Positions 3,145 to 32,295 of a stretch of 33,956 bases of DNA are shown here, in pieces. How positions within the stretch are numbered: position 1 is the stretch's first letter; each line of letters opens with the position of its first letter. The DNA lies in the IMG/VR virus record IMGVR_UViG_3300031647_000029, positions 1-33,956 of that record; one strand, written 5' to 3'. Under the pieces are notes generated by a model, which made no database searches, was not told the DNA's origin, and saw only the letters and a program-made list of their open reading frames with translations. The position numbers were made by a program, and so were the translations under genes. Origin of the DNA: a virus. Taxonomy: Duplodnaviria; Caudoviricetes.

Positions 3145-6100
3145 TTATGGATTATTTATTATTAGTTTGCGTTTCTTTTTCTTAGAAGGTTTACCTTCAT
3201 TTTTCTCTTCTTTTAACTTGTCTTTATAGTCTTGTACTATTTGTTTTTTAGCTTCTGGTAACTCATATTTATTAATATCTAAACTGTATTGATCCCAACC
3301 AGCCATTAAAAATATACTCTGCCAGGTTTTAGTGTCTTCTTCTAAAGCTGTTCTTACGTTATCAACTTTAGTTATAATTCTATCAATAGGAAAGTTTGTT
3401 ACTGCAGATATAACTTGACCTGTTGCTAGTATAGCTGGATTGTCTATATCTAATCCTAAAGCCATCATTTCTTCTTTGTTGTAATCTACTGCTAAACCAG
3501 CTCCTTTTAATCTTTGATATTTAGAAGATATTGGAGGTGAAATACTTAATGCTTTTTCAGCAACCTTAACATATTTAGGTCTATCTTTTTTAGATTGTTT
3601 TCTTGCTTCCCACATCATATTTTTAATAGTAGCACCAACCGCACCATATACACCTGAACCACGTAGTATTGAATCTAACATGCTATTAGCAATGCTAAGA
3701 TTCTTTTCAAGCATACTTTCTTGTGCCTTTTGACATTTTTCTAGTTCTTTACCAACTTTACCCTCGCAAGGATCTTCATCATCAAACAACACAGCGAATA
3801 AAGCCTGCTGTAAAGCGTTAAATATATAATTTTGAGCTAATCCATAGTAAGCTATTTTAGATAGATTTGTTTTTAAATCACCTCTACCGTTTTTAGCATC
3901 TAAGTAAGCTTTTTTCATTAACCTATTGTATTGCATTGGTGTATTAGCAAAAGCTAAAACTAAACGACCTAAGCTACCAGCTTGTTGACTACTAATTTTA
4001 TCAGGTCTACTAGATTGCTGTGATTTTTCAGCGTTTTCTTGCATATCAAAAAATGCTTTTTCTTCTGCCTCTAATAAGCTAAAACCTTCTGCTTGATAAG
4101 TTTGTGTTCTATTTCTAAAAAACGCAGCGCCACCTGAAGCTATAGCCCAACTATCTACCATTTGAGTTAATACAAAACCATTTCTCATAAACCAGTTAAA
4201 CATAGCTTTAACTTTATTTCCTTTGCCTTTAACATAAGCAGCGATTTCGTCAGCACTTACATCAAACTTATTACCTGATCTTCTAGATTTTAAAAAATCA
4301 CTATTAAATATTCTAACAAAGTCACTTAAGAATTGTGGAAAATTAGCAACTGCTAAAGCAGCCTTAGCTGGATTGTTGTCTGTCCAGTTTAAAAAATTTA
4401 AATTTGAAATTGATTGTAGTATAGCACTTCTACCATTAACAAACATAACTACAGCTATAGAGTTATTTATCCAATTCATAAAGCCATTAACAATTTTGCT
4501 AGTTCCCATAGCTCTGTGTCTACCTGTTCTCATTCTGTAGATACTATCACTTAAAGCTTCTAAAAAATCCATACCAAATATAGCGGATATTTTATTAGCA
4601 GTAGGTCCTGTCAATAAACCAATACCATTTATAGGTCCAAATATAGAGTCAGAGTTTTCTAAAAATTCTTTTAAATACAAGTTTCTATTAGTAGTAGTAG
4701 CTGCGTTCTGTATGTCAGAATCTATATTACCTACTTCCCATGTCTCATCAGGTTTAACATATCCTTCAGCAAAAAGATTAAACGTCTGATCCGCGTAGTC
4801 TTTTAGCTCTTGATTGTCTTCAACAATTCCAATTAATTTTTTAATATCTGTATCACTTAATCCTGGTATTTCATAACCAGCTTTATTCCACATGTATACT
4901 CTAGTAGCATCACCATATGTAAATCCTGAGTAATCTGTCTCTTTGTTCAATAAAGAGTTTCTGTAGAAAGGAACTTTTGCTATTTTAGTATATCCACTTA
5001 TTAAAGGATGTTTAGCTTTTATAGCTTCGTATTGATTTTTAACGCGCATTCTAGCTACATTCATAGCATTTATGCCTCTACCAAATGGTTTCATTAAATT
5101 ATCTTCAAACCAAGCCATTTGTTCTTCACCTATTTTACCTTTACCTAAAAATTGATATATTAAACCTTCAAAATCTTCAGCCGCTGGAGGTAGAAAGAAT
5201 TTATTTTGTTTAATTATTACATCAGTTCTTTTAGCTCTTTGTTCTGAGAACACTTCGTCAGTTGGTATTTTAGATACGTCAAACAATATTTGATTAAAGT
5301 TTTGATTTAAAGTTTCACTGTTTCTTAACTTAGCTAATTGAGTAGTGCCTTTTACATCATACTTATCTAGTAGATCTTTTACAGCAGCAACGTTTTTAAT
5401 AGCATCATCTGCAAAGTAAAAATCATTATAACCTTCTGCTATTTTACCTTCTATCCAGCTTGCTTTAGCTTCTGGTTTACCGTCTTCTAAGCCTGTTATG
5501 TTCTCTATAGGTATATTTAATCCAACACCATCTAAAAAATCTTTAATAGCTGTAGCTGCCGCTTGCGGTCGAGCTGTTAAAACAAATACGTTTTCTGTTC
5601 CTCTTTTTTCTTGTATAGCCTCTGCAACTTCAAACAAAGGTCCTTTTTTACCTTTGATTACTTTGTTAAATTCAGAAAAATCAAACTTAGCTCCTTGAGC
5701 CTCAAGGTCTGCTGATTGCTTAGCAAATTCTGTAGCGTTTATTTTATATGTTTTTCCTTTGCTTTTACCTCTTAAACTAAACTCTAAATTATAATCTCCT
5801 TCTCCAATAAAATCTAAACTAACATCATAAGTTTTTCCGTTTATATTAAAAGAACTTTTTAAGTTGTCTGCAATGTCTTTTTTAAATTTTATAGCGTTTT
5901 TATTGCTTTTTATTTTTTTAGCATCTTTGCCTTTATTTAAAGTAAAGTCTTCGGATGTAATTACATCAGTACTTCCAGTGCTATCTACTGTTTCAAAAAC
6001 CTCTAATTTCCAACCTAAGTCTTTTGAAAGCTTATTAGCTAATGAGTTATATAATTTAACCCTGCTTTTTTCGCTAAACTCTGAGCTAAAACTTATTGTT

Positions 6101-9100
6101 TTTATATTATTATTATTTGCAACAGAATTTATAACGCTTTCGTAAACAGTATTAATTACTTTTTTAGCATCACCAGTATTAGTTACGCTTTGCACTGATT
6201 CAGGCATAGTAACAGTAACTTTGCTTTTAGATCTAGCTAAAGTGTCATCAAAATCAAATATTCTTATTTTGCCATCACCAATAGTTTCTGAATTACGTAA
6301 AGAAGATTCATTGCTTAAAGTAACTTCATAACCTGTTTCTATTTTGAGTCTTTGTGAAAACTCTTCCATAGCAACCTCATACATGTTTTTACCAGTTATT
6401 AAATCATACACTGTTTTTCCAATTTTACCACCATCTAATAAAAACCTTAAATTACCTAAAGGACTATTTCTTCCACCTAGTTTATCTAATGTGTCAGCCA
6501 TTTTATTTAACAAGAAAGACTGTTCAAAGCCACTTAAAATGCCATCAATATCTTGTATGTATGTGTCTTGTAAATAAGACTTAATTATAGATGACGTAAC
6601 AGTAGAAGAATCGTCTACGTGTTCACCTTTCCATCCTGTGAATTTATCATCAATGTTTTGCTTGCCATCTACAAAATGAAAAGAACTAAAAGCAGCATAA
6701 GCTCTAGCAGAAAAAACTGCGTTGGTAGTCTTTTGTAAATTATTAATAGCGTTGTTAACAGCCTCTGCTCTTGACATACCAGCTTTGACTTGAGAATCAA
6801 TCATGTCGTTTAAACTAGAATGATAAGCCTTCATAAATATTTTACCCATTTTTATAGCTGCAATACCTTTAGTTCCTATTGTTCTTCTTAGTTCTGCTAT
6901 TTTTTCTATAGCTGATAAATCTTTATTAGCTATATCTTTAGCAATACTTAATATGTGGCCTAACTTGCCGGCACTCTTATTACCTAATATAATTTTATTT
7001 ATATTAAATTTATCCCAAAGAGCTATAGTTTCTGGACTTGCTTTTGTTTTATTGTTTAATGCTTTATTTATAGCAGACTTTCTTTTTTCTTTGTAAACTT
7101 TCTTGCTATGTTCTACGAGTTCTGCATGTTGCTCTTGACTTAAAGCCATTTGCAGTTCTTCAGTTAATAATTCACCGTTAAAATCGTACATAGCAACATT
7201 AGTAGCATAAATGCCACTTCTAATGCTACCAACGTTGTGTTCTAATACTTGTTTTATAAAATTACTTTGTTGGTTTGCAACATTTTCAGAAGCATTAATT
7301 TGATCGTGAGGTATAAAACCTATAGCTTTAAAAACAAATTTATCTACGTAGTTTTCCATAGCCTCAGACTTAACTATATATCTATAACTGTATTCTGGTA
7401 CCAACTTACCGTTTGTCCAATTTAAATCTCCATTTTTTTCAGGTACTATTTTTTCTCCAATCTGTATTCTTTTACCTTTACTGTCAAGCCAGTATTCTTT
7501 GTAAATTAAATTATACCCTTTTTCTTTTAAATAATTTTCTGTAATAATATCAAGATTTTCCATTGACCCAATGTTGTCAACAAAGCCTGTATTGTTTAAT
7601 TCTACATCGCCAATAAATTCTTGCAGTTCATTTCTTAATAAATCTTGCACAGTCTCTGGCATAAGAGAAAAGTCTTGATCAAAAACAGAAGGATTATAAC
7701 CTAGATCTTGTAATTTACCTAGCACTTCAGAATCTCTAAAACTAGGAGTTGGTCTATTTATAGCTTTAGCCAATACTGCAGCGTAAATTTCTAATTGATC
7801 GTCATTTGTTATTTCTTGTATGCCTTCAAATCTATTTCTTGCTTCTGGATTATTTTGCATTACATCTATAGTTGCGTCAAATCCAAATTCTGCAGCTAAA
7901 GTTTTAGCTAAAGATTCTTTTCTAGTTTGGCTTTTTGTAAAGTACTCAATAAATTCCGTTTGATCGTAAGGTTTTCTAGTGTTTACCTGATTACCAGCTG
8001 TTCTGTTTTTTACACTTGGGCTTAAGTCAGATTGTTTAGTAGAAGCTCTTTCTGATATTAATACTTTAAATTGATTATATCTTCTGTTTATAATAGATTG
8101 ATCAAGTTTTTCGTAAATAGCCTCACCATGTTTTTTCAAAGCATTAGTAAATCTTGTAAGATTTCCCTTGCCTTTCTCATTGTCAACATGTCCAAAGAAA
8201 TCAGAAAACACAACGTCATATAAACTATTTTCAAAACTTGCTTGTAATTGTTTTTTAAATTCGTTTTGACTTATCATTGGAAGCCTAGAACCTAGAGCGG
8301 TTATCGTAGATTCAATAGCTTTTTTATATACAGGATTGTCTTCTTTTATATCTAGTAATTCAAACCAAGTCTTTTGTTGTTCTTCAGTATAAACATCATC
8401 ATCTATTAATGTGCCTACGTTTTTATCATTTAATTCACCACTAAAAACTTTACTTGTAGTGTTTCCAGAGTTTAAAGCGTTTTTACCTTTGTTAACAGCT
8501 TGTGATTTAATCCAAGCAGCTAGATTATCATTTTCAGAAGGATCAAAGTTTCTTATATGAGGTATTAATTCTATTTTTGTTTCAGAAATAAAGTCTTGCC
8601 TGCTAAAATCAGGTGTTCTTGTCATTTTTTCTGTTATTCTTGCTCCGACTATTTTATCTAACATAGGGTATATTTCACCTATAACATCATTAGATATTTT
8701 TTTCCATTCAGCCTTAGACATTGACTTGTTTTTCATAACATTAACACCACCCATTATACCGCTGGCTACTGCATTGATTTCACTATCTCTAAGTGAAGTA
8801 TTACTAGAAAAAGTACCACCATCTGTATTAAGATTAGTTCCTCTTCCTCCTCTTAAAAAAGAATTATTGTAATCTTTTAAAAAATCAAAAGCTTGTTTTC
8901 CAGTAGATATATTTGCGCCATTTATAACGTCAGGAGTCATTCCTAAAGTATACTTATAAAAATCAGTTATTTTATCAGCAAAATCTTGATAAAACTTTTT
9001 GTCAGCTCTTTCCCATGTTATATTTTTAAGCTGCATTTCATCACTTATTGATGTGAATAATTCTTGATAATAATTAGCACTTCCTTTGCCGTATTTTTTT

Positions 9101-12100
9101 GCAGCATTATCCATTCTGCCTTTAATTCTTTGCAAAGTTCCTTCGCTTATAGTTCTAGTATTAACATCTCCTAAACCTTCTGTTAAATAAGTCTCTAACA
9201 TAGCACCTACTTCTATCATTTTTTCGTCACTAAAAGATCTATCCATTATAGCGTGTAGTATCTCATGACTTAAAGCAACAGAACCAGTTGTATAATCTTG
9301 GTCATACATAACCTTTTGAGCCGCGCCCATAATGTTTTGATTACTAGTAACAACCCATTGTTTTTCTCCTTTTGTGTAACTAGTAATAAAAGCAGAAACG
9401 CTGCCGTCATTTTTATTTAAATAATCTTGAATAAATTGACTAGCTTCTTCTTCGGTTGCAAAACCTTCGTTTTTCATAACCCACGTTAACAAACCTTTAT
9501 TAGTTATTTTATCTGAGTTTTCGTTAAGCTCTATTATTTCAATATCTGAATCTAAGCCTAGTGTTTTTAAGAAATTAACACCTTTAGTTAAACCTCCCAT
9601 AGTTTCAGACATGTAATCTGCAAAAGTAGTAAACTGATCACCTTTAGACTCAGGAACTATTCCTAGGTTAAGTATAGTATCTATTTCTAATTGTATAATA
9701 TCAAGGTTTTTCTTAGCGTTTGTTGCTCCGCTAGTCGCTCCTTGTTCCATTATCATGTTTCTTGATTGAAAAAGATCTTGAAGTCTTTTCCTAACGCTAA
9801 CATTTGATTTTAATCTTCTTTTAGCGCTATTACTTATAGATGTATTTTGATCAATACCTGCATTGATTTGATCTACAATTAAATTATTTTTTAAAATTCT
9901 ACTGAGATCTTGTTTTGTTATTTTTTTAGCATTAAACAATTTAGTAGCAAATTTTTTAACTTTTTCAGTGCTAAAACCTTGTCTAACTGCATAGTTTAAA
10001 TTTTTTAGTTTTTCAGCATTTTTAACAGCTGTATTATAATATTGTCCTGTTGAAACTTCTACAGCAACATTACTACTAGTACTACCAAGACCACCTAATA
10101 TTTCGTTATTAGTATCAATCCAAAACTTATCATCACTAAATCCTAAACCTTCTCCCCAAGCTAAAGCACCCATTTCTCCTAGTCCTTCTGTTGCGGCATC
10201 AGTACCTATAACACCTACTGTTGTTACTAATTTTTGAGAACCTGTTTTTAATGCTAAGTTTCTAACCTGCATTTGAGTTAACTTAACGCCAGCTATTGAC
10301 ATAGCAGCTATAGGTATACCTCTTTTTGTTCCTAGCTCAAAAGCTTTTTCTTGAACTTTTTCGTCAGATAATATTTCTAATATTTGATCTTTATTTGTCC
10401 AAAATGTTGATTCATCAAATCCTCTTTTTTTAGCTTCTTCTGTAGCTGTTATATTAAAAGCATTACCCATCTCCATGTTGAAGCCAGTTATAGCCTGCCA
10501 AGTTAATAAAGCATCTGCTGTACCAGAAAACGCTCCACCTCTTATAACACTACTAGTAACTCCTACGGCTGCGGCAGGCGCAATAGACTCACTAGACCAT
10601 CCAGTTGTAGAAAACTGACCCAAGGAAGCTATAACTAAATCAGCTATTATCTCAACAGGGTTTTGCCCTAGTAAAGCAAACTGTTGTTGTGGAGTTTTAG
10701 CTTTTTTATATCTAGACATGTTCTCAGTTGTCATAAGACCTCTAGAAGCTGCTTGATTTACTATTATTTTTTCTATAGCTTCAGGCATTTCACTGTCATC
10801 TGTTACGCCATATATAATTCTATAAAACTCTCGGTTATTTCTACCAGTAGCTCTAGTCATTGTCCAGTCGTTAAGTAAACCTCTAACTACGCTATCAACG
10901 TATTGCCCTTCGTAATTAGCAACTTCTGAATCATCTAAAGCTAAAGATAAATTTAAACCTTGTGAAGCTATTTTGTTAGACTTAGTTGATATAAGATCAA
11001 ACTCGCTTAAAACATCGTTAACTTCATTAACTTGTGTTTGTATAGCGTTGTATTGGTCGAATAAAGCGTTTACTTCATCTAATTCTTTTTGATTTTTAGC
11101 AACAAATTTACCATTTGTGAATACAGAAAGATCATCAGTATACTTAAACATTTGATCGGTTATTTCTTTAAACTGCTCATCAAAACCTGCTTCAAGTGCT
11201 TCTAGTTTTTCAGCGCTCCAACCCGTGTTAGTTAGTTCTGTAAACTTAGTAACCACTCTATCGTGAGCGTTTTGAAGCTTTTCATAATCAGCATTTAAAT
11301 TAGCTGTTTTGTATTTAGCAAAATCTTGTATAATTTTTTTGCTTTTATCCATCATGTCCATGTAGATAGGACTACTAAGTGATTCAGCTATTTTTTGTTG
11401 TCTAGCATTAACTTCTCCTTGTCTCGCGTCGTCTACTCCAAATATTCCTGTAAAATTTCCAGGTCTATAAGCAGTTCCTGCGCCTGTTCTAGTTCCAGTA
11501 TAATCAATACGACCGTCTTCAAATTCTTCAAAGTAATCTTCAAAATAAGGATTATCTTTTATTTCTTTTAGTTTTTCTTTATTTGAAACATCACGACCTA
11601 TACCATAAATTGGCTCGTTAATTGAACTACCTTTGCTGTCTAACATAGGTTTAGTAGGTATAGATAGTTCGTCTTCGTTTCTTAAACTATTCCAAACGGA
11701 AAGTATAGCATCTCTTTGTTCAAACTCAATAGCTAACTTAGCGTTTTCTACTTCTAACTCGTTAAACTTGTTCCAATCGTAACCTTGTTGAGTAAATATA
11801 ACCTGTTCTACAAAATCTGTAAAACTACTTTTACCGTCTTTAGCATTAAAATCAATATCAATTTCATTACCTAAAAAATTATATAAATTCTTTTTATTTT
11901 TTTTCTTATAATCTATAGCTTTGTTGTATTCAGCCATAATTCTGTTCATATCCCAAGTATTAATATCTTCTGGAATATTATAAGGAGTTTCTACATCTGT
12001 ATTTAAACCAGTAACATTGTCAAGTCCTTGTATTTTGTTAATATCAATTTCAACAGGAGGGGCTAAAGCGAAATCGCTTATATCTCTAACGTTTCTAGCA

Positions 12101-12375
12101 ATTTCTACGTCTTTTGGATAATCAATCGTGCCAAATTCATCACCTCTTGGTACACCTACAGAAGTCGGCGTGTTGGAGTCCAAAGAAATATCCAGCGAAG
12201 GTAACTCCCCAACTTCGCTGTCTAGCTTTCCCACTTCATCTAACCCTAAGTTAGTTGATTTAAAGCTATCTTTAAGTGCTTTTATTTGAATGTCCATGTC
12301 AACAGCTTTAGTTTCTTTTAACTTAGCTCTAAGGGCACTTATTTGTTTTAATTGTGAAAATGTATAATCTGCCAT
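3145..12375 (-). CDS. Giant (3076 aa) multidomain virion cargo/ejection protein: membrane-like region, zincin HExxH, sigma region-2-like, HAD phosphatase, C-terminal helical domain
   Basis: Lies after the muzzle and two smaller cargo genes. Motifs: HEILH (aa 1037-1041), DFISE...NFDPSENDNLAAWI, and the HAD set IFDFDDTL / LTARP / K / FADD. Confidence 0.85.
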   Translation of the reverse strand: MADYTFSQLKQISALRAKLKETKAVDMDIQIKALKDSFKSTNLGLDEVGKLDSEVGELPSLDISLDSNTPTSVGVPRGDEFGTIDYPKDVEIARNVRDISDFALAPPVEIDINKIQGLDNVTGLNTDVETPYNIPEDINTWDMNRIMAEYNKAIDYKKKNKKNLYNFLGNEIDIDFNAKDGKSSFTDFVEQVIFTQQGYDWNKFNELEVENAKLAIEFEQRDAILSVWNSLRNEDELSIPTKPMLDSKGSSINEPIYGIGRDVSNKEKLKEIKDNPYFEDYFEEFEDGRIDYTGTRTGAGTAYRPGNFTGIFGVDDARQGEVNARQQKIAESLSSPIYMDMMDKSKKIIQDFAKYKTANLNADYEKLQNAHDRVVTKFTELTNTGWSAEKLEALEAGFDEQFKEITDQMFKYTDDLSVFTNGKFVAKNQKELDEVNALFDQYNAIQTQVNEVNDVLSEFDLISTKSNKIASQGLNLSLALDDSEVANYEGQYVDSVVRGLLNDWTMTRATGRNNREFYRIIYGVTDDSEMPEAIEKIIVNQAASRGLMTTENMSRYKKAKTPQQQFALLGQNPVEIIADLVIASLGQFSTTGWSSESIAPAAAVGVTSSVIRGGAFSGTADALLTWQAITGFNMEMGNAFNITATEEAKKRGFDESTFWTNKDQILEILSDEKVQEKAFELGTKRGIPIAAMSIAGVKLTQMQVRNLALKTGSQKLVTTVGVIGTDAATEGLGEMGALAWGEGLGFSDDKFWIDTNNEILGGLGSTSSNVAVEVSTGQYYNTAVKNAEKLKNLNYAVRQGFSTEKVKKFATKLFNAKKITKQDLSRILKNNLIVDQINAGIDQNTSISNSAKRRLKSNVSVRKRLQDLFQSRNMIMEQGATSGATNAKKNLDIIQLEIDTILNLGIVPESKGDQFTTFADYMSETMGGLTKGVNFLKTLGLDSDIEIIELNENSDKITNKGLLTWVMKNEGFATEEEASQFIQDYLNKNDGSVSAFITSYTKGEKQWVVTSNQNIMGAAQKVMYDQDYTTGSVALSHEILHAIMDRSFSDEKMIEVGAMLETYLTEGLGDVNTRTISEGTLQRIKGRMDNAAKKYGKGSANYYQELFTSISDEMQLKNITWERADKKFYQDFADKITDFYKYTLGMTPDVINGANISTGKQAFDFLKDYNNSFLRGGRGTNLNTDGGTFSSNTSLRDSEINAVASGIMGGVNVMKNKSMSKAEWKKISNDVIGEIYPMLDKIVGARITEKMTRTPDFSRQDFISETKIELIPHIRNFDPSENDNLAAWIKSQAVNKGKNALNSGNTTSKVFSGELNDKNVGTLIDDDVYTEEQQKTWFELLDIKEDNPVYKKAIESTITALGSRLPMISQNEFKKQLQASFENSLYDVVFSDFFGHVDNEKGKGNLTRFTNALKKHGEAIYEKLDQSIINRRYNQFKVLISERASTKQSDLSPSVKNRTAGNQVNTRKPYDQTEFIEYFTKSQTRKESLAKTLAAEFGFDATIDVMQNNPEARNRFEGIQEITNDDQLEIYAAVLAKAINRPTPSFRDSEVLGKLQDLGYNPSVFDQDFSLMPETVQDLLRNELQEFIGDVELNNTGFVDNIGSMENLDIITENYLKEKGYNLIYKEYWLDSKGKRIQIGEKIVPEKNGDLNWTNGKLVPEYSYRYIVKSEAMENYVDKFVFKAIGFIPHDQINASENVANQQSNFIKQVLEHNVGSIRSGIYATNVAMYDFNGELLTEELQMALSQEQHAELVEHSKKVYKEKRKSAINKALNNKTKASPETIALWDKFNINKIILGNKSAGKLGHILSIAKDIANKDLSAIEKIAELRRTIGTKGIAAIKMGKIFMKAYHSSLNDMIDSQVKAGMSRAEAVNNAINNLQKTTNAVFSARAYAAFSSFHFVDGKQNIDDKFTGWKGEHVDDSSTVTSSIIKSYLQDTYIQDIDGILSGFEQSFLLNKMADTLDKLGGRNSPLGNLRFLLDGGKIGKTVYDLITGKNMYEVAMEEFSQRLKIETGYEVTLSNESSLRNSETIGDGKIRIFDFDDTLARSKSKVTVTMPESVQSVTNTGDAKKVINTVYESVINSVANNNNIKTISFSSEFSEKSRVKLYNSLANKLSKDLGWKLEVFETVDSTGSTDVITSEDFTLNKGKDAKKIKSNKNAIKFKKDIADNLKSSFNINGKTYDVSLDFIGEGDYNLEFSLRGKSKGKTYKINATEFAKQSADLEAQGAKFDFSEFNKVIKGKKGPLFEVAEAIQEKRGTENVFVLTARPQAAATAIKDFLDGVGLNIPIENITGLEDGKPEAKASWIEGKIAEGYNDFYFADDAIKNVAAVKDLLDKYDVKGTTQLAKLRNSETLNQNFNQILFDVSKIPTDEVFSEQRAKRTDVIIKQNKFFLPPAAEDFEGLIYQFLGKGKIGEEQMAWFEDNLMKPFGRGINAMNVARMRVKNQYEAIKAKHPLISGYTKIAKVPFYRNSLLNKETDYSGFTYGDATRVYMWNKAGYEIPGLSDTDIKKLIGIVEDNQELKDYADQTFNLFAEGYVKPDETWEVGNIDSDIQNAATTTNRNLYLKEFLENSDSIFGPINGIGLLTGPTANKISAIFGMDFLEALSDSIYRMRTGRHRAMGTSKIVNGFMNWINNSIAVVMFVNGRSAILQSISNLNFLNWTDNNPAKAALAVANFPQFLSDFVRIFNSDFLKSRRSGNKFDVSADEIAAYVKGKGNKVKAMFNWFMRNGFVLTQMVDSWAIASGGAAFFRNRTQTYQAEGFSLLEAEEKAFFDMQENAEKSQQSSRPDKISSQQAGSLGRLVLAFANTPMQYNRLMKKAYLDAKNGRGDLKTNLSKIAYYGLAQNYIFNALQQALFAVLFDDEDPCEGKVGKELEKCQKAQESMLEKNLSIANSMLDSILRGSGVYGAVGATIKNMMWEARKQSKKDRPKYVKVAEKALSISPPISSKYQRLKGAGLAVDYNKEEMMALGLDIDNPAILATGQVISAVTNFPIDRIITKVDNVRTALEEDTKTWQSIFLMAGWDQYSLDINKYELPEAKKQIVQDYKDKLKEEKNEGKPSKKKKRKLIINNP
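12140..12232 (-). other. Candidate programmed -1 ribosomal frameshift cassette
   Basis: In-frame G GGA AAG (12232-12226), 5-nt spacer, perfect 8-bp stem CAGCGAAG/CTTCGCTG, loop able to pair with downstream GACTCC, and a -1 frame stop at 12142-12140. Confidence 0.65.
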
Positions 12376-12386
12376 TTTATTTTTAT

Positions 12387-14039
12387 TTAGTTACCTGCTG
12401 CAACGTTTCTAACTCGTTTCATTTTTTTGTTGTAATCTTCTTGAGTTATATCTCCTTCTTTTAAACTTATATCATATTGATCTTTATATGTACTAATAAA
12501 CTTATCTATGTATACTTGAGCTTGTTGCTTGAATTTTTTTCTTTCTCCTACTCCGCTTTGTTTGTCACCTAACCAATCTAATAATGAAAACACGTTTGTA
12601 GCCCTATTAGTCTTAATAGTCTCCCAGTTTGGATCACCTGGTTCTTTTTGAAAGAAAAATTTATCCTTTAAATCAGCACCTAATTTGTTAGCTTCTTCAA
12701 TACCATCATTGTTTGTAATATATCTTTTATATTCCTCAAAACTATACACCGTTTGCTTATCGCTCTGTGGATTTAAATTGTTTAACATATTAGCAACAGG
12801 CGTTCGGTCATTCTTATCTATTGTACCCATTGTATCTAAATCAAAATCTACTTCTGGATCAATAAAAAAGTCAACTAAATTACCCATGTTTATGAAATCA
12901 GGATTATTAACATCAGGCGTGAAAACCTCTTCTGTTTCTATTTTAAACTTAGTATTATCTTTATCCCAGTTAGATTGCTCAGGATAAGATGGTGTCCATT
13001 TACCATCCTTCATTTGTATCATATTACTTTTTTCAAAATAACTATCAATAACATATCCTACTAAAAAGTCTTTAGCATTTTCATATTGTTCGCTTGATTT
13101 ACCGTCTTTACCTATAATGCTCCAGTTTTTAAACCTAGGATCATCTATAGCTATGTCTCTCATTCCACCTCCAATAACAGTTGTACCATCAGTATCGAAT
13201 TGTGTAGGCATCCAATCAGCAAATACAGAACTCATTAAAGGATTCTTCATAAACTCATTCATTCCTTGTCCTGTTAATTCGCTTTTTAAATACTTAGTTA
13301 AAGCATCTACATCGTAATATTTTATATCTTTGTTTTCATTAGGTTCAACTACAAAGCTACCGTCTTTAGTAAGAGGCTTTGCAAAAGCATCTATGTTTAA
13401 ATCTTGAATTGTTGCCGCTGGAATAACCACTGTATTCATCTTGGATCTTAGTATTTCATATTCATCTAAGCCTAGTTGATAATCCCAGTTTTCCGTTTTA
13501 CCAGTTGCTTCATCGCGTAATAAACCTGCTCCTACTAAAGCTAGTTTACCGTTTACGTCTTTTAAAGTTACAGCACCTGAATCTTTCCAAAGCTCATTAA
13601 AAAGCATTCTTATATCAGGATCATTAAGTTTAGATAATTTATTAGAACCATTAGGGCCTAAATCTTTAAAATATAAAGCATCAGTTGCTAGCATGTTTTT
13701 TACTCTACCGTATTGACTTAAACCTTTTTCTTTAGCCATAATTAATTGAGCTCCTAAAGAAGGATCTAGTTCACCTGAGTCAATTTGATTTTTTAAATCA
13801 TATATATCATTAGCATCTCCCATAAAATAATCTTTAACGTTTCCATCAAAAGTTTTTTTATCTATATCAAACTTACTTAATTCTCTGTACTGCTCATATT
13901 GATTTCTGGCTTCGCTAGCATCTACTAATCTTTGTCTTTCAGTCAAAGCAGAAGCTCCATAGTTTATTAAACTATTAGCTATTTTTTCTGCAGCAGCAGG
14001 ATCAAAAGGTTTTATTGATTTGTATTGTGGATATTCCAT
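12387..14039 (-). CDS. Putative internal virion/ejection protein (550 aa)
   Basis: Middle gene of a small-medium-giant trio after the nozzle genes, as in podovirus ejectosome clusters; no recognised motif. Confidence 0.6.
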   Translation of the reverse strand: MEYPQYKSIKPFDPAAAEKIANSLINYGASALTERQRLVDASEARNQYEQYRELSKFDIDKKTFDGNVKDYFMGDANDIYDLKNQIDSGELDPSLGAQLIMAKEKGLSQYGRVKNMLATDALYFKDLGPNGSNKLSKLNDPDIRMLFNELWKDSGAVTLKDVNGKLALVGAGLLRDEATGKTENWDYQLGLDEYEILRSKMNTVVIPAATIQDLNIDAFAKPLTKDGSFVVEPNENKDIKYYDVDALTKYLKSELTGQGMNEFMKNPLMSSVFADWMPTQFDTDGTTVIGGGMRDIAIDDPRFKNWSIIGKDGKSSEQYENAKDFLVGYVIDSYFEKSNMIQMKDGKWTPSYPEQSNWDKDNTKFKIETEEVFTPDVNNPDFINMGNLVDFFIDPEVDFDLDTMGTIDKNDRTPVANMLNNLNPQSDKQTVYSFEEYKRYITNNDGIEEANKLGADLKDKFFFQKEPGDPNWETIKTNRATNVFSLLDWLGDKQSGVGERKKFKQQAQVYIDKFISTYKDQYDISLKEGDITQEDYNKKMKRVRNVAAGN

Positions 14040-14054
14040 ATTTTGTATTTTATT

Positions 14055-14735
14055 TTATAATAAGCTTCCTAAACCTTGCATGAATCCCATTGCTGAACCT
14101 AGTCCTTGCGACTCTGCCATTTGCGAGTTTTGATTAGCTTGCGACAATTGGCCTAATGCTACTTGCATATCTGAATTTGCTCTGTTCTCTAATAGTTCAG
14201 TTTCAAACGCTATACCAGCAGCTTCCGCTTGTTGTACTCTTTGACCTTCTCCTATATCTATTGATTGTATTCTTGATTTTTCTGAAACTTTAGCTCTTTG
14301 TAGCTCTTGTTCTCCTTGTGCTTTTAGTTTTTCATTTTGAGCTTCTTGCTGTTCTAAGTTAGCTGATACTCCTTTTTTACTTCTAAGTGCTGCTTGTGCT
14401 AAAGCAGTTGCTCCACCGGCACTTGCGCCACTTGATCTTAATGTATCTAAAGTATTTGCTAAAGCTAAGTCTGCTTCTTCAGCTTGCATCTCAGCTGCTT
14501 GAGTAGCAACGCCAATGCTTTGAAAAGGATTTGACATCATAGCCGAAAGATCTGTAGCTAAGCCTGATAAATTTGTAGTATTTATGTACGGATTTGTAGC
14601 GGTAGGTCTACTAGCTTTAGCGCTGTCGATAGCTGCTTGAGCTACTCTAGCGTCTTGCTCGTATTGAGCTTGTTTTCTTTTAGCGCCTATCATTCCGACT
14701 CCCGCCGCTGCTACACTCATTATTTGTCCCCACAT
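14055..14735 (-). CDS. Putative small ejection (pilot-like) protein (226 aa)
   Basis: Gly/Ala-rich hydrophobic termini (MWGQIMSVAAAGVGMIG; GLGSAMGFMQGLGSLL), Gln/Ala-rich coiled coil, central GASAGGATALAQAA. Confidence 0.65.
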   Translation of the reverse strand: MWGQIMSVAAAGVGMIGAKRKQAQYEQDARVAQAAIDSAKASRPTATNPYINTTNLSGLATDLSAMMSNPFQSIGVATQAAEMQAEEADLALANTLDTLRSSGASAGGATALAQAALRSKKGVSANLEQQEAQNEKLKAQGEQELQRAKVSEKSRIQSIDIGEGQRVQQAEAAGIAFETELLENRANSDMQVALGQLSQANQNSQMAESQGLGSAMGFMQGLGSLL

Positions 14736-14750
14736 ATTTTATGTTTTATA

Positions 14751-16130
14751 TTATCTTAAATTGTATGTTGCCCCTACTGAAAATATTCTTTTAATAGAAG
14801 TTGTATTTGTGTTTCCGTCTGTTCTCATTGTTACATCTATATAATAACCTTTCGTACCCATTAATGAATCACCAAAAAGTACTTCTCCTATTTGAGGAGG
14901 TGTGTTGTTTTTTATACTTGCAACATATTTGTTTTGTTTTCTATCAAAACCTTCGTAATACTGTATTCCACCATCTTCATAACCACCGTCATTGTAACTT
15001 AATATACCTGATGCAGTGTCTTGATAACTACTCCATCCGCCGTCAAAAAAGTTTTGACCAGTAGATTCAGAAGCTAAATTAATTACTTCCCATCCATTAG
15101 TCCCTTCGTAATTTATAGTATTAAAAGTTTTCATTCTAGTTGGTTCAGGGTTTACAACTAATTTTAAAGTTGAAAGTCTGCTACCACCTGCATAAAATTT
15201 ATTAGGTTGAGCTGGGTTTTGATAATGTAAAAATAATTTATCATTTCTTATAGAATAAAAATCTCCTTGCACACTGAATATAAAATAAGGATCAAACGTG
15301 AAAAAGCTAGTCCAACCTAAAACTCTTTCGTCAAAAGATAAAGTCCTATAAGGAAGTGATTCAGGTTGTAAAGATATAACATAATTTTGGTTGTATATAT
15401 CAAATCCACCTATCACTTTACCAGTTCCTGTGTTTCTTTGAACAAGTCTCAACTGGTCTCTAAAAAAGTCTGACATACCATAATTAGATATTTCAGTTAT
15501 ACCATCGTTAGATAGCCTTAAAACAGCGTTCCTATCAGCGTCAGCAAAGTATTTTCTAGTACCGTAAACCGCAAAAGACTCTGGGTTCCTACTAATACCA
15601 TACTCACCTCTGTAAGCTATGATTTGACCTATCACTAGGTTAGCTGTAGTTGTTATAGATGCGCCTTCTGCAGAGTATATAGCATCTTTATCTATCAATG
15701 CTCTGTTTACTTTGCGCTCTTGAAAAATTATTAAATTTGTATCTTCAGAATATAATTTCTGTATAGAACCATTTATAGGATCTACGCTTCTTGTTATTTC
15801 TTCTGCTACACTAAATTGATTGGTTTGATTTATACCTGTTCTAGAATTAAAAACTCCAGAATATATAAGACTACTAGCTCTTCTTGACTGAGCCGCTGTG
15901 TCTTCTACTATGTAAGCTTTAACTCCAAAATCAACAGTAGTATTATTGTAACCACCTCTAATTCTAGATTCTTCAATATACCAGTCGCTTTCTATCCTTA
16001 ATCCAACAGGTACTGTAGCAGAAGGATCAACAGCATAGGCAGCAGATGAAGAAATCTGAGGCATAGCTTCACTTGCTAATCTCTTTACTGTAAAGGTGTT
16101 AAAATAACTTAATTCTATCGTTGCTCCCAT
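14751..16130 (-). CDS. Tail muzzle/nozzle protein, C-terminal beta-propeller part (crAss-like)
   Basis: LIYSGVFNSRTGINQTNQF, GSIQKL, YGISRNPESFA, YFAD...VLRLSNDGITEISNYGM and GWTSFF propeller-type motifs. Confidence 0.7.
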   Translation of the reverse strand: MGATIELSYFNTFTVKRLASEAMPQISSSAAYAVDPSATVPVGLRIESDWYIEESRIRGGYNNTTVDFGVKAYIVEDTAAQSRRASSLIYSGVFNSRTGINQTNQFSVAEEITRSVDPINGSIQKLYSEDTNLIIFQERKVNRALIDKDAIYSAEGASITTTANLVIGQIIAYRGEYGISRNPESFAVYGTRKYFADADRNAVLRLSNDGITEISNYGMSDFFRDQLRLVQRNTGTGKVIGGFDIYNQNYVISLQPESLPYRTLSFDERVLGWTSFFTFDPYFIFSVQGDFYSIRNDKLFLHYQNPAQPNKFYAGGSRLSTLKLVVNPEPTRMKTFNTINYEGTNGWEVINLASESTGQNFFDGGWSSYQDTASGILSYNDGGYEDGGIQYYEGFDRKQNKYVASIKNNTPPQIGEVLFGDSLMGTKGYYIDVTMRTDGNTNTTSIKRIFSVGATYNLR

Positions 16131-16159
16131 ATTATATTATCACTTGTTTTTACTTATTA

Positions 16160-19100
16160 TTACACCGGTCCTAGATTACATTCGCCACCATAACCAGGTG
16201 TTGCATCTCCAAACTGTATAAAAAACTTAGCATCGTTTGCGCAAGCAGGCGTACTACATCTAGGTCCTGTTAAAGGTGTTGTTAGTACTCTGTATTCCCC
16301 AGCAACGTCAAATTCAAAAGTTAGAAATGCACTTACGCCATTAGTAGGCGTAACGCTATTAAAAGAAGTTATAGGCACTACTAAATTAGCTCCAAACTGG
16401 CCGGTTCCAGCGGTGACTGTTTGTGCGGTAGTTGCGTTTACCCAGGTTGATCCTGATTTATATTGTATTACAAATGTACCTGAAACTTCATTGTTGGTAG
16501 AGCATGCTCCGTTAATTGGGTTTTCTATTTTAACAATTATATACATTTGAGCTCCGTCATTTAACCCACCGTTACCTGTGGTTGATCCTATGTTTGCTAA
16601 ATTATATTGATAAGCTACATTGTAATAAAAAGTTGTACCCCATATTGCGCCGCTAGGTAAATTACCAGTGGTAGTGTTAACTGCGCTATTTCTAAAATGA
16701 AACTCTCCTCCGCCTGGCGAACAACTGTAATCAAAATTATTAGAACCTGTTGCTCCACCGTTTGATCGGTAATTGTTACACACAGCTTGATTCACATGCT
16801 GTGCTCCAGTTGTCCATGATAAGCTACTAGTTTGTGTTAAAAAACCAACTCCAGTACCATTGCAATCAGAGGCTAAAGCTATTACAGTATATGTAGTATT
16901 TAAAACCATAGACTTACCAGCTTTTACAGCTAGTAAACCTGGAACAATAACATTATCTTTAGTCGCATTGATCTCAAAAATATCTACATCCGCGCCGTTT
17001 GTATCAACTTGACTTTGTATTGAGTAAACTATTTGGTTAGGTCTGTTAGTTGCGTTAGCAGATCCATTGTAGGCTTCAAAACTAGTTGTTTGTATTACAT
17101 CTCCATCATCATTTGTTTCCCATAGTATGTAAGTATCGTTTATTTGTATTAATCTATCGGCGTTTAAAACAGGATTACCTATTGTTTTAGTAGCGGGAAA
17201 CCTTGGTGTGTTAGTATTTGGTGGTTCAATGTTTGTTAGTGAAGCTGTTATACTAATGTTACTGGTATAAACTACACTAGTTACTTGTTCTGTGTAAACT
17301 ACTACCATGTTTATTTGATAGACGTCGTCTTGAGTAGATGTTGTACTATACCAAAAAGTTTTATCTGGTCCTGTTTTTAATGACCAACTGCCATCAGTGT
17401 TGTCTTCAGTTATAGCAAAAGGAACTTCGCTTGTAACATTAACAGATCCGTTATTAGAAAATACACTCAATATAGTAGCGCTGTCTACGTTTCTTTCTGT
17501 ACCACCTCCATCTAAAAACTTCCAAGAAGCATCTATGACTGTATTAACAGCAGCGCTTTCTGGAAATGTAAAGTTATCTTCATCCGTTCCAACTATTCCT
17601 GGGTCTTGAGCGTCAATTAATGCGTTTAAACCAGGTAAATAGCCTGTTGAAGATGTTTCCCAGAATATTTCTAGTAAAGATTCTATAGGATTTGTTTCTG
17701 CTACAGTTAATATACTTCCAAAAGAATACGGCGTACCGTTTACTGGAGTTTGAGGACTAACAACATGACCTGTAGTAGTGCATATAGCGCCTAAAGGATT
17801 AGTTGATAGATTTCCTACAGATATTTGAGCAGTTAAAGGATTGTTTTCTAAATTATAAAAAGGAGCTGCTTGAGGAGACGGAGGATTAGTAGCTCCAGGT
17901 GTAGTTCCCCAAGGAATTTTACCACTACCTTCTCTTGTAAATTGATTAGTTCCTGCTACTCCAGTTTGAACAACATCATTATAGGTGCCTTTGTTTACTC
18001 CTGAAATAAAAGGAATTGTTGCGAGCTCTCCATCTATGACACTTTGTATGTTTACTATAGTGTCATCAAGGTTTCCAGGAAAATACTGAACATTAAAAGG
18101 AGTGTAATTATATTTACCTGCATCGGTTTTATATTCCATGCTAGGATTATTAACTCTAGTATAAAGTCTAACACTACTTCTGTACTGTGTTTGATTAGGT
18201 CCAACTTCATTTAAATCTCTAGGAACCTTGTTAACATTGTCCCCAAACAATGGTGTAAAAGCTGTTATATTTCTTTCTTTATCAGTAGTAATAGGATAAC
18301 CATTAACAAAACCAGGTAAATAAACATTGTAGTAATCTTGCTCTTGTTGTTTTATTACTATTTTATAAGAATACCAACCTAAAGGATTTGTAGAAGAGTA
18401 CCAACCTGGTTCACCAGTTTCAGGGTTAGGGTTTTGCACTGCTATAGATCGCTCAAAAGTAATTCTTAAAGCGTCACCTATCCATGAAAAAGTTTGACCA
18501 TTTGCTATCTCGTCTTCATCTCTGTAGGAATGAAATATTGTAGAACCAGAAGCGCCTAGTATGTCATCTTGACTAGATAATATAACGTCAGATTGTCTAC
18601 CATATTGATCTGATAAAACAACCCCGACTTGATAAGTTCTGTTTTGTTTTAAAGAACTGTTAGGAAATTGAGTGTAGTTATCATACACAACGTCTTTTTC
18701 TTGAACTGATGTTATGTAATCAATATTTTCAGGCGCAGTGTGTTTGTCTATGTAGTTACCGTATACAATTCTACTACCTATAACTTCTTGAGCTAAGGCT
18801 TTTATTGGAACTTTATCATAAACTCTTACTGTTTGAGCTTCTGGTAAAGTTTTATAAGGTTTTATTGATTCGTAATTGTAGTCATAAAAATAACTAATAC
18901 CACCTGGATGAATTAAATCTTGATACTTAAAGTTGGAAAAACTAATATTAGAACTAGTAGATACGGTGTCTAATACTTTTACAGATAACTGATCTGCTTC
19001 TTTATATAAAATATCTATTTCAGTTATATGAAAATAATCATACAATGCTATTGGTGTTGCTATTTCCGACTGATCACTTTTTCTAGGAATAGGTATTCTT

Positions 19101-20500
19101 AATTTAATACTATCTACGTTGTTTTCAAACCAAGCTAGTATAGTAGACTTATAAGCGTCTTCCATGTCTTTGTCAGAAGAGTTTTGGCCTTTGCCAAATA
19201 TACCTTGTTGTTTAGGTATAAACATTATTTGAGTAAAAGGAGCCATTAAAGAATACTCGTTGTCGTCAAACTTAAATCTATAACTAAACCTTACGTATTC
19301 TCCTTCTAAAAAAGCAGGGTTACCTTTCCATTGTGAGTTGTAATCTGGATTATTACCTATTGTAATTTTTTGGTTTTGGTTAGGAACTTGTATTGTATTA
19401 GCTACATCTAAAGTAAAGTTAAAAGTCTCGTTTACTCCAGTTCCTTCAAACGCAACGGTTTGTATTATACCTGTGTTAGCTGGAACATCACCTAAACCGG
19501 TACTTATCCTTGCAGCCTCTTGACATGTAACAAGCATTCCTATCTCAGGTCTTGCTTCTCCTAATGCGCTTTTAATGATTTTTAAAACACTACCAGCTGC
19601 TCCGCCACCAGTAGCGGTAACTACCGTTGGGCCTACAAAATTAGAAACAAACCTATCATTTTTATTAGTCATAGAAGGTCTACTAAAATCTAATCGACTA
19701 TTAGTTATAGCAGTAAAAGGTTTTGACACGTGTATCTCTAACGTTCCTGCGTTATTAATTATCTTAGTGACAGTTATTAAAGTGTTTATGCTAGGTATTT
19801 CTGAGCTAAAATCTTTGTCAACATTAGTAACTATATCACCTGTTCTTACTGTAGCAGGCATAGTGCCTTGTATTTCTATTATACTACTATTACTATGTGC
19901 ACCATTTATTCTAGCGCTAGATCTTTCCATAGCTATTATAGTCTCATAAGGATAGTATTTAGCTACAGATATTTGTTCTTCTACTGTGTACTTTGTAGGA
20001 GCAGACGAAGCACTTGGATTTGCTAAAGCAATATTTATTTTTCTAGGCTGATTAGTATTGTCTGTAAAAAACAATAAATCTTCAATTAAATTAACGCCAT
20101 ATATAGGAAAATTTTTATCAAAATTTAAAAAGAATCCTTCAACTAGCTTAACAGGACTTACATTAGTAGGCGTGTTTAAGTTTAACCTATGTATAAAGCA
20201 TTTATTAGCGGCAACAGCTCTTGGTATTGTTGACGTACTTGTAAAATCTGTAGAAAAAATATATAAAAAACCTTTGCTATTATCTGCTATTTGCCCTATT
20301 ATACTTACAGCACCGCTTGGATCTAGATTAGTTAGAATTTCACTAGCGCCTGGTATTTGCTCAAACTCTCCAACAGTAGAACCTTCTGATCTACTTATTT
20401 GTAAATTTTCAGCTTCTCTATATTCTCCATTAGGAAGAATTCTAGCGTCTAAGTCTTGATTCATTTTGCCCTTTAAAAAAGCATTTGTAACTTCTGCCAT
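16160..20500 (-). CDS. Tail muzzle/stabilisation protein, N-terminal part with a beta-rich variable C-terminus (1446 aa)
   Basis: N-terminal GKMNQDLDARILPNGEYREAEN, LLFFTDNTNQPRKIN, RFSYRFKFDDNEYS, RIVYGNY and SLKQNRTYQVGVVLSDQYGR, typical of crAss-like tail stabilisation proteins. Confidence 0.75.
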   Translation of the reverse strand: MAEVTNAFLKGKMNQDLDARILPNGEYREAENLQISRSEGSTVGEFEQIPGASEILTNLDPSGAVSIIGQIADNSKGFLYIFSTDFTSTSTIPRAVAANKCFIHRLNLNTPTNVSPVKLVEGFFLNFDKNFPIYGVNLIEDLLFFTDNTNQPRKINIALANPSASSAPTKYTVEEQISVAKYYPYETIIAMERSSARINGAHSNSSIIEIQGTMPATVRTGDIVTNVDKDFSSEIPSINTLITVTKIINNAGTLEIHVSKPFTAITNSRLDFSRPSMTNKNDRFVSNFVGPTVVTATGGGAAGSVLKIIKSALGEARPEIGMLVTCQEAARISTGLGDVPANTGIIQTVAFEGTGVNETFNFTLDVANTIQVPNQNQKITIGNNPDYNSQWKGNPAFLEGEYVRFSYRFKFDDNEYSLMAPFTQIMFIPKQQGIFGKGQNSSDKDMEDAYKSTILAWFENNVDSIKLRIPIPRKSDQSEIATPIALYDYFHITEIDILYKEADQLSVKVLDTVSTSSNISFSNFKYQDLIHPGGISYFYDYNYESIKPYKTLPEAQTVRVYDKVPIKALAQEVIGSRIVYGNYIDKHTAPENIDYITSVQEKDVVYDNYTQFPNSSLKQNRTYQVGVVLSDQYGRQSDVILSSQDDILGASGSTIFHSYRDEDEIANGQTFSWIGDALRITFERSIAVQNPNPETGEPGWYSSTNPLGWYSYKIVIKQQEQDYYNVYLPGFVNGYPITTDKERNITAFTPLFGDNVNKVPRDLNEVGPNQTQYRSSVRLYTRVNNPSMEYKTDAGKYNYTPFNVQYFPGNLDDTIVNIQSVIDGELATIPFISGVNKGTYNDVVQTGVAGTNQFTREGSGKIPWGTTPGATNPPSPQAAPFYNLENNPLTAQISVGNLSTNPLGAICTTTGHVVSPQTPVNGTPYSFGSILTVAETNPIESLLEIFWETSSTGYLPGLNALIDAQDPGIVGTDEDNFTFPESAAVNTVIDASWKFLDGGGTERNVDSATILSVFSNNGSVNVTSEVPFAITEDNTDGSWSLKTGPDKTFWYSTTSTQDDVYQINMVVVYTEQVTSVVYTSNISITASLTNIEPPNTNTPRFPATKTIGNPVLNADRLIQINDTYILWETNDDGDVIQTTSFEAYNGSANATNRPNQIVYSIQSQVDTNGADVDIFEINATKDNVIVPGLLAVKAGKSMVLNTTYTVIALASDCNGTGVGFLTQTSSLSWTTGAQHVNQAVCNNYRSNGGATGSNNFDYSCSPGGGEFHFRNSAVNTTTGNLPSGAIWGTTFYYNVAYQYNLANIGSTTGNGGLNDGAQMYIIVKIENPINGACSTNNEVSGTFVIQYKSGSTWVNATTAQTVTAGTGQFGANLVVPITSFNSVTPTNGVSAFLTFEFDVAGEYRVLTTPLTGPRCSTPACANDAKFFIQFGDATPGYGGECNLGPV

Positions 20501-32229: not shown

Positions 32230-32295
32230 GTTGATTTAATTTAAGTTATTAATTAATTGTTAGTTATATAATTACACGTTTTAAGTGCACTTTAC

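Follow-up and report, generated by a model that had tools for sequence, protein, structure and literature searches.

The 33,956-nucleotide (nt) stretch IMGVR_UViG_3300031647_000029, here called the window (the whole stretch that was analyzed), is the virion arm of a phage genome (CheckV completeness, 57%), and its largest gene encodes a protein with an embedded sigma-70-like domain. The gene order is terminase, portal, capsid, tail, and muzzle genes, followed by three genes of 226, 550, and 3076 amino acids (aa). The last and largest of these three (3145..12375, minus strand) encodes a multidomain, or "polyvalent," protein that we take to be virion cargo; this predicted location rests on gene order, since the same-position genes are annotated as structural in phages phi38:1 and elemo, and the same-position phi14:2 proteins gp66 to gp69 were detected by mass spectrometry. 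The two smaller genes (12387..14735, minus strand) also occupy the cargo position, as judged from the list of open reading frames (ORFs) and from synteny with phi38:1, elemo, and phi14:2.

The sigma domain consists of N-terminal (region 1.2-like) helices and regions 2.1 to 2.4 and lies at 8434..8790 on the minus strand (core 8473-8673), with evidence from Pfam, family profiles, and structure prediction. Within ORF 3145-12375, the peptide IYPMLDKIVGARI...AVNKGKNAL lies in frame on the minus strand at aa 1235-1301 (nt 8673-8473); an earlier note, which had proposed a sigma-70 region 2-like domain here, numbered its residues about 4 aa off. Pfam Sigma70_r2 (PF04542) matches a 155-aa piece with an E value of 6.4e-4 and the whole protein with one of 0.021. 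The single sequence is subthreshold, because its score of 21.2 bits is under the curated cut-off of 24 bits, and only 3 of 40 family members match PF04542 at E<=0.05. With family profiles, sigma factors account for 7 of the top 9 matches and 6 of 6 PDB matches (best E value, 0.003). The predicted structure adopts the sigma2 helical fold, and the nearest known counterparts of the domain are T4 gp55 (7d7d_F), SigB (8x6g_H), FliA (6pmj_F and 9wsf_A), SigE (8b3z_A), and sigma32 (8hkc_E). Within regions 2.2 to 2.4, conservation over 125 aligned rows reaches 97% at F/Y1277, 99% at W/Y/F1288, and 98% at K/R1296, and the tryptophan pair that primary sigmas carry is absent. Family profiles and predicted fold thus bear out the proposal and confirm, as far as profile and model reach, that the embedded domain is a diverged sigma-70 domain 2. 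A chance match was considered and rejected, as the signal holds in family profiles and fold searches and its position is fixed. Foldseek with the two-domain model gave no match at E<=1e-3 in PDB or BFVD, tblastn of the sigma module and of the C-terminal domain gave none among GenBank phages, and single-protein locus scans with the sigma module returned 0, 2, and 4 loci. The cultured relatives phi38:1, elemo, Panino, and MW202828 have no sigma2 match in cargo or genome. When the sigma domain (A4 residues 5-118) was modeled in complex with Flavobacterium johnsoniae beta-prime 255-345, the scores were 0.23 and 0.24 against a mark of 0.32, with controls not folded, and they are weighed on neither side.

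The sigma2 domain is followed by an acidic linker with the pattern F-x-x-D-[VI]-T-E-x-x-K-G (8386..8460, minus strand), located from the predicted model and the family alignment. The linker is modeled at low confidence (pLDDT <50 at model residues 111-135), and its net charge is above zero in only 2 of 74 cases; the structural alignment with gp55 extends to model residue 133, and we take the linker to be placed like the sigma region 3.2 finger. Next comes a helical domain with a β-hairpin (7747..8379, minus strand), basic in most relatives, without a fold match, and a candidate reader of upstream promoter elements. A fold search with this domain alone (~210 aa) yielded no sigma region 3 or 4 among the matches listed, in line with the earlier remark that no clear region 4 helix-turn-helix was visible. 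The cargo sigma differs from the sigma-70 family in being embedded in a 3076-aa protein, in continuing into a 210-aa domain unmatched to regions 3 and 4, and in scoring below the Pfam cut-off.

Upstream of the sigma module, in the region 8938..9432 (minus strand), lies HEILH, a metallopeptidase motif of zincin-like type (aa 1037-1041, nt 9267-9253), and further downstream a Glu at aa 1105. The H, E, and H of the motif are invariant by selection, and the downstream Glu (E124) is invariant in 46/46 without selection. Matches to peptidase families are weak (M78 in 2 and M90 in 1 of the 46), LPD23 occurs on 18% of members of the ESM Atlas neighbor cluster, and a zincin profile search found no significant solved relative; the region would be a processing protease, as predicted from its motif. 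The 3076-aa protein contains four R[DN]SE motifs (aa 1196, 1547, 2027, and 2351), compared with 0.075 expected by composition. RDSE at aa 1196 (8779..8790, minus strand) marks the start of the sigma module and RDSE at aa 1547 (7726..7737, minus strand) its end, and both are candidate cleavage sites. The first does lie upstream of the sigma peptide, at 39 aa from I1235 and not at the roughly 30 aa originally given. Among 53 relatives, the upstream boundary motif is weakly kept (12 strict), and the module end carries [QK]FS or R[NY]S in 45, against 0 to 4 in six control windows. The position of the sigma module behind the peptidase is fixed.

Relatives were used for the promoter question because the window has neither an early arm nor an early site; in ten of them, the terminase is 67-85% identical to that of the window phage. 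A repeated motif before the first small genes was noticed in five of these genomes. The resulting class I pattern, MCAM-N4-WWTACRA-N8-RGATAAT, occurs in 26 of 35 relatives, with 133 matches against 3 for the backwards control, and the sites are clustered, almost all on one strand. When variants are included, the motif is found in 28/28 early arms inspected (172 sites). Two positions that played no part in site selection, index 11 (T in 61%) and index 12 (purine in 97%), put GATAAT at -12 to -7, the register of sigma-70. A motif-only scan retrieved 219 loci, and 43 of the 45 contigs behind the first 80 loci carry cargo-family homologs. The motif is absent from all four GenBank outgroups (phi38:1, elemo, Panino, and MW202828), which also lack the sigma2 domain, so that motif and domain co-occur.

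Comparison with the Bacteroidota host promoter consensus suggests that class I is not read by the primary sigma of the host. The relatives' early arms show no enrichment of TAnnTTTG, and the class I motif is unlike the TTG...TAnnTTTG sites upstream of phi14:2 g070, g075, g108, and g110, which the accessible text of the phi14:2 study assigns to the host polymerase (bioRxiv 10.1101/2020.03.07.982082). The AATACGA element is reminiscent of the T7 promoter. Among 12 genomes, T7-type RNA_pol (PF00940) gave no match, but as no control gave a signal either, this falls short of demonstrating absence; no beta-prime-type polymerase was found above the cut-off in 12 complete genomes. A single PF00623 match was discounted, as its frame holds 8 stops.

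A separate sigma of 245-264 aa is encoded by 27 of the 35 relatives' genomes, downstream of the class I sites. It is group 3-like and conserved, sits at the end of the early cluster (G001:C1:43200-43940 and equivalents), and is strongly divergent in G002 and G016. A second pattern, class II, GTAA-N12-AC(A/G)(A/T)GT(A/G)AT, precedes middle and late genes, where the window and 8 of 10 relatives show a 5- to 140-fold enrichment, the pattern having been drawn by eye from the same data as the enrichment count; enrichment is ~2-fold in G002 and G016 and nil in four outgroup stretches. In the window, class II (middle/late) promoter-like sites are ACAAGTGATA (16138..16147, minus strand), before the 459-aa muzzle gene, and ACGTGTAATT (32270..32279, minus strand), before an 84-aa gene. 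Class II sites are likely the targets of the stand-alone phage sigma.

We propose that the cargo sigma module is probably an injected early sigma, packed in the virion, cut out, and steering the host core polymerase to class I sites, with the second sigma taking class II; two sigmas for two promoter classes is the simplest account. The 3076-aa protein would be packed and injected into the host, where its own predicted metallopeptidase would cut at R[DN]SE sites and free a sigma module of ~350 aa. Sigma2 would engage the clamp helices of beta-prime and melt GATAAT, the acidic linker would act as a finger, and the basic C-terminal domain would stand in for regions 3 and 4, reading TACA near -36 and AATACG at -28 to -23. 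Among the products of early transcription would be the second, ordinary phage sigma (~250 aa), which would then serve the middle and late promoters. The data show the domain with its conservation and position, the boundary motif, and, in relatives, both motif classes and the separate sigma, whereas packaging, cleavage, core binding, initiation, and the pairing of factors with motifs are deduced. We also lean toward the broader view that a very abundant marine Bacteroidota-type phage clade injects a new kind of sigma, in which sigma2, a finger, and a DNA reader of new fold are cut from a virion polyprotein, seize the host core polymerase for a tripartite promoter ahead of any phage protein synthesis, and hand over to a second sigma. 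The earlier suggestion that such a factor "redirects or blocks" host RNA polymerase is better supported in its first half than in its second, because the early promoter-like motif of the relatives is phage-specific and calls for some reader besides the primary sigma of the host.

The reader of class I could instead be the stand-alone phage sigma, acting autocatalytically once leaky transcription has begun, or an alternative sigma of the host, with the cargo sigma2 in a side role such as helper or relic; we consider this unlikely. The stand-alone sigma is a full protein, conserved like the motif, and its divergence in G002 and G016 coincides with a variant (type 2) motif. Its gene, however, lies downstream of the class I sites, and no host-type promoter pattern is enriched to start it (8 matches against 17 in the control, at low power, phi14:2 itself giving 3 against 3); moreover, class II is available to it and is also weaker in G002 and G016. 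Covariation of promoters with either sigma is indirect and mixed. Mantel tests covered 20 genomes, after 8 of 28 without 4 sites, a sigma, or a module had been set aside. Over these 20, the stand-alone sigma shows the strongest correlation with promoter distance (r = 0.47-0.54), an effect that G002 and G016 drive; without these two, that correlation falls to r = 0.08-0.15, and the cargo C-domain is the one that promoter distance tracks (r = 0.34-0.38; p = 0.006-0.02, uncorrected, 30 tests). The type 2 motif occurs in 7 of 49 records; in the five of them compared by sequence, the C-domain has no hairpin, but these records are probably one lineage. G005, G010, and G026 have lost the ACG element (1/15 sites) and share one C-domain subtype. 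The stand-alone sigmas of G005 and G010 do not form one clade (p-AU 0.00019), that of G010 being 80% identical to that of ACG-positive G003. Two genomes break a simple rule between C-domain and ACG, namely, G011 (9/9 ACG with a related C-domain subtype) and G007 (6/6 ACG with no detectable C-domain). Glu at cargo position 1299 goes with G at -13 in 14/16 cases, compared with 4/21 (p = 5e-5); after relatives are collapsed, the link is 5/7 versus 3/13 (p = 0.06), and this column is not the best. Stand-alone sigmas with identical region 2.4 pair with different -13 bases, which counts against a stand-alone reader of class I.

It is still more doubtful that the injected sigma2 is a decoy occupying the sigma site of the host core, which would shut down host transcription or defense with no initiation. 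The residues on the promoter-melting side (aromatic 1288, basic 1296) are retained, the C-domain is basic in most relatives, unlike the acidic Ocr, the host core is needed immediately by a phage that has no polymerase of its own, and a decoy would leave the non-host early motif needing a reader. Least probable, and in our estimate remote, is a sigma-derived domain with another job in an uncut protein (e.g., single-stranded DNA binding during ejection), or a protein that is not virion cargo. Packaging and cleavage are indeed deduced, the peptidase family matches are weak, and the cultured relatives live without the sigma domain; yet the fixed place behind the peptidase, the module-end motif in 45/53 relatives, and the co-occurrence with class I argue against this reading.

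Early transcription in phages is known to start through the host holoenzyme, an injected polymerase, or injected modifiers of the host enzyme. The virion polymerases N4 vRNAP and P23-45 tape-measure RNA polymerase have reportedly been proposed to start early transcription on entry, and T4 gp55 is a late, nonvirion protein. The window cargo resembles phi14:2 gp66, a virion RNA polymerase, in its large size and in its place where the block of virion genes ends; according to the accessible text, gp66 is proposed to initiate early transcription on entry, and phi14:2 early transcripts have no common upstream motif (bioRxiv 10.1101/2020.03.07.982082). The relatives of the window phage do have such a motif. 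In contrast to virion polymerases, the cargo contains neither DFDxD nor a polymerase domain (its DFDDT is a phosphatase motif, and D[FY]D[GIV]D occurs in 2 of 173 cargo homologs); only a specificity factor would be delivered, and the host would catalyze. With an HExxH motif, an invariant Glu as third ligand, and variable domain content, it also resembles the polyvalent proteins with zincin-like MPTase, described in the available portion of that article as HExxH peptidases with variable modules and proposed to act by autoproteolysis and a transcription "jump-start" (Iyer et al. 2017, PMC5512222); the main text of that article contains neither "sigma" nor "promoter." The phage sigma factors in PMC7824862 are not described as virion cargo in the part available. 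A literature search, with subscription papers mostly outside its coverage, turned up neither a sigma factor delivered by virions nor the class I motif. If correct, an injected sigma would be a further route to early transcription, distinct from the host holoenzyme and virion polymerases, with a new architecture in which regions 3 and 4 give way to a domain whose fold has no match. Its defined cognate promoter would make it testable in vitro with a single protein of 350 aa, core polymerase, and a template of 50 bp, and a sigma/promoter pair that is orthogonal in Bacteroidota could result.

The flavobacterial podoviruses elemo (Elemovirus), phi38:1 (Pervagoviridae), Panino, and MW202828 share the order terminase, portal, scaffold, capsid, tail, and three cargo genes, with terminases 36-63% identical, and differ in having neither sigma2 nor the class I motif. 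The terminase shares 36-44% identity with those of phi38:1, Panino, and elemo but only 22%, over 192 aa, with that of phi14:2; the label "crAss-like" applied previously fits only loosely, given this distance and a cargo without DFDxD. By terminase, the clade comprises an estimated ~13,000 IMG/VR stretches. Flavobacterium, Cellulophaga, Maribacter, and Tenacibaculum are the hosts of the cultured phages nearest in terminase and capsid. A Shine-Dalgarno-like word precedes 1 of 22 window genes and 16 of 22 have A at -3, a combination that is a Bacteroidota trait; together with the nearest cultured phages, this start-site pattern suggests a Bacteroidota-type host. Cargo homologs L168 to L171 sit in metagenome-assembled genomes labeled Flavobacteriaceae, Aureispira, Bacteroidetes, and Woesearchaeota; they are probably binned phage contigs and a weak host hint.

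The rest of the cargo protein is divided by R[DN]SE motifs. Its third segment (aa ~1551-2026; 6298..7725, minus strand) has no Pfam match below E 0.1 and is variable, with an "EH" motif (E1918, H1919) kept in 4/4 aligned homologs; it is possibly a nuclease or other effector. RNSE at aa 2027 precedes a HAD-type phosphatase domain with a lineage-specific insert (5341..6297, minus strand). The HAD domain (5341-6267, minus strand; motif DFDDT) resembles polynucleotide kinase/phosphatase, matches a PHROG polynucleotide kinase (E = 2.5e-4), and is split by a DUF6934-like insert of ~150 aa (aa ~2058-2207; E 6e-4). Domain content varies across homologs: the HAD domain is found in only some, the insert is absent from a 96% identical relative, and alternative C-domains occur. 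The last segment (3148..5325, minus strand) holds RNSE at aa 2351 and a conserved C-terminal domain common to the family, which is present in 375 IMG/VR stretches, with 55-74% identity over aa 2630-2860 in the best 80. In the type 2 lineage (L108, L114, L117, L122, L090, L128, and L238), the cargo protein has a second HExxH, near the C terminus where checked. The muzzle/tail-stabilization gene (14751-20500, minus strand) spans two ORFs, of 1446 aa and 459 aa, each of which matches the same PHROG family (1474 positions), with muzzle Pfam matches at 14751-16130 (minus strand). Early intergenic regions of G001, G003, G004, G005, and G006 contain tRNA-like 3' arms (GGTTCGA...CC), some recurring between genomes. 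GTGACA...TGTCA inverted pairs and a GTGACAA motif occur in G003, G004, and G005 at the junction of the arms and also ahead of the gene upstream of the sigma, and possibly represent an origin, an operator, or a third promoter class.
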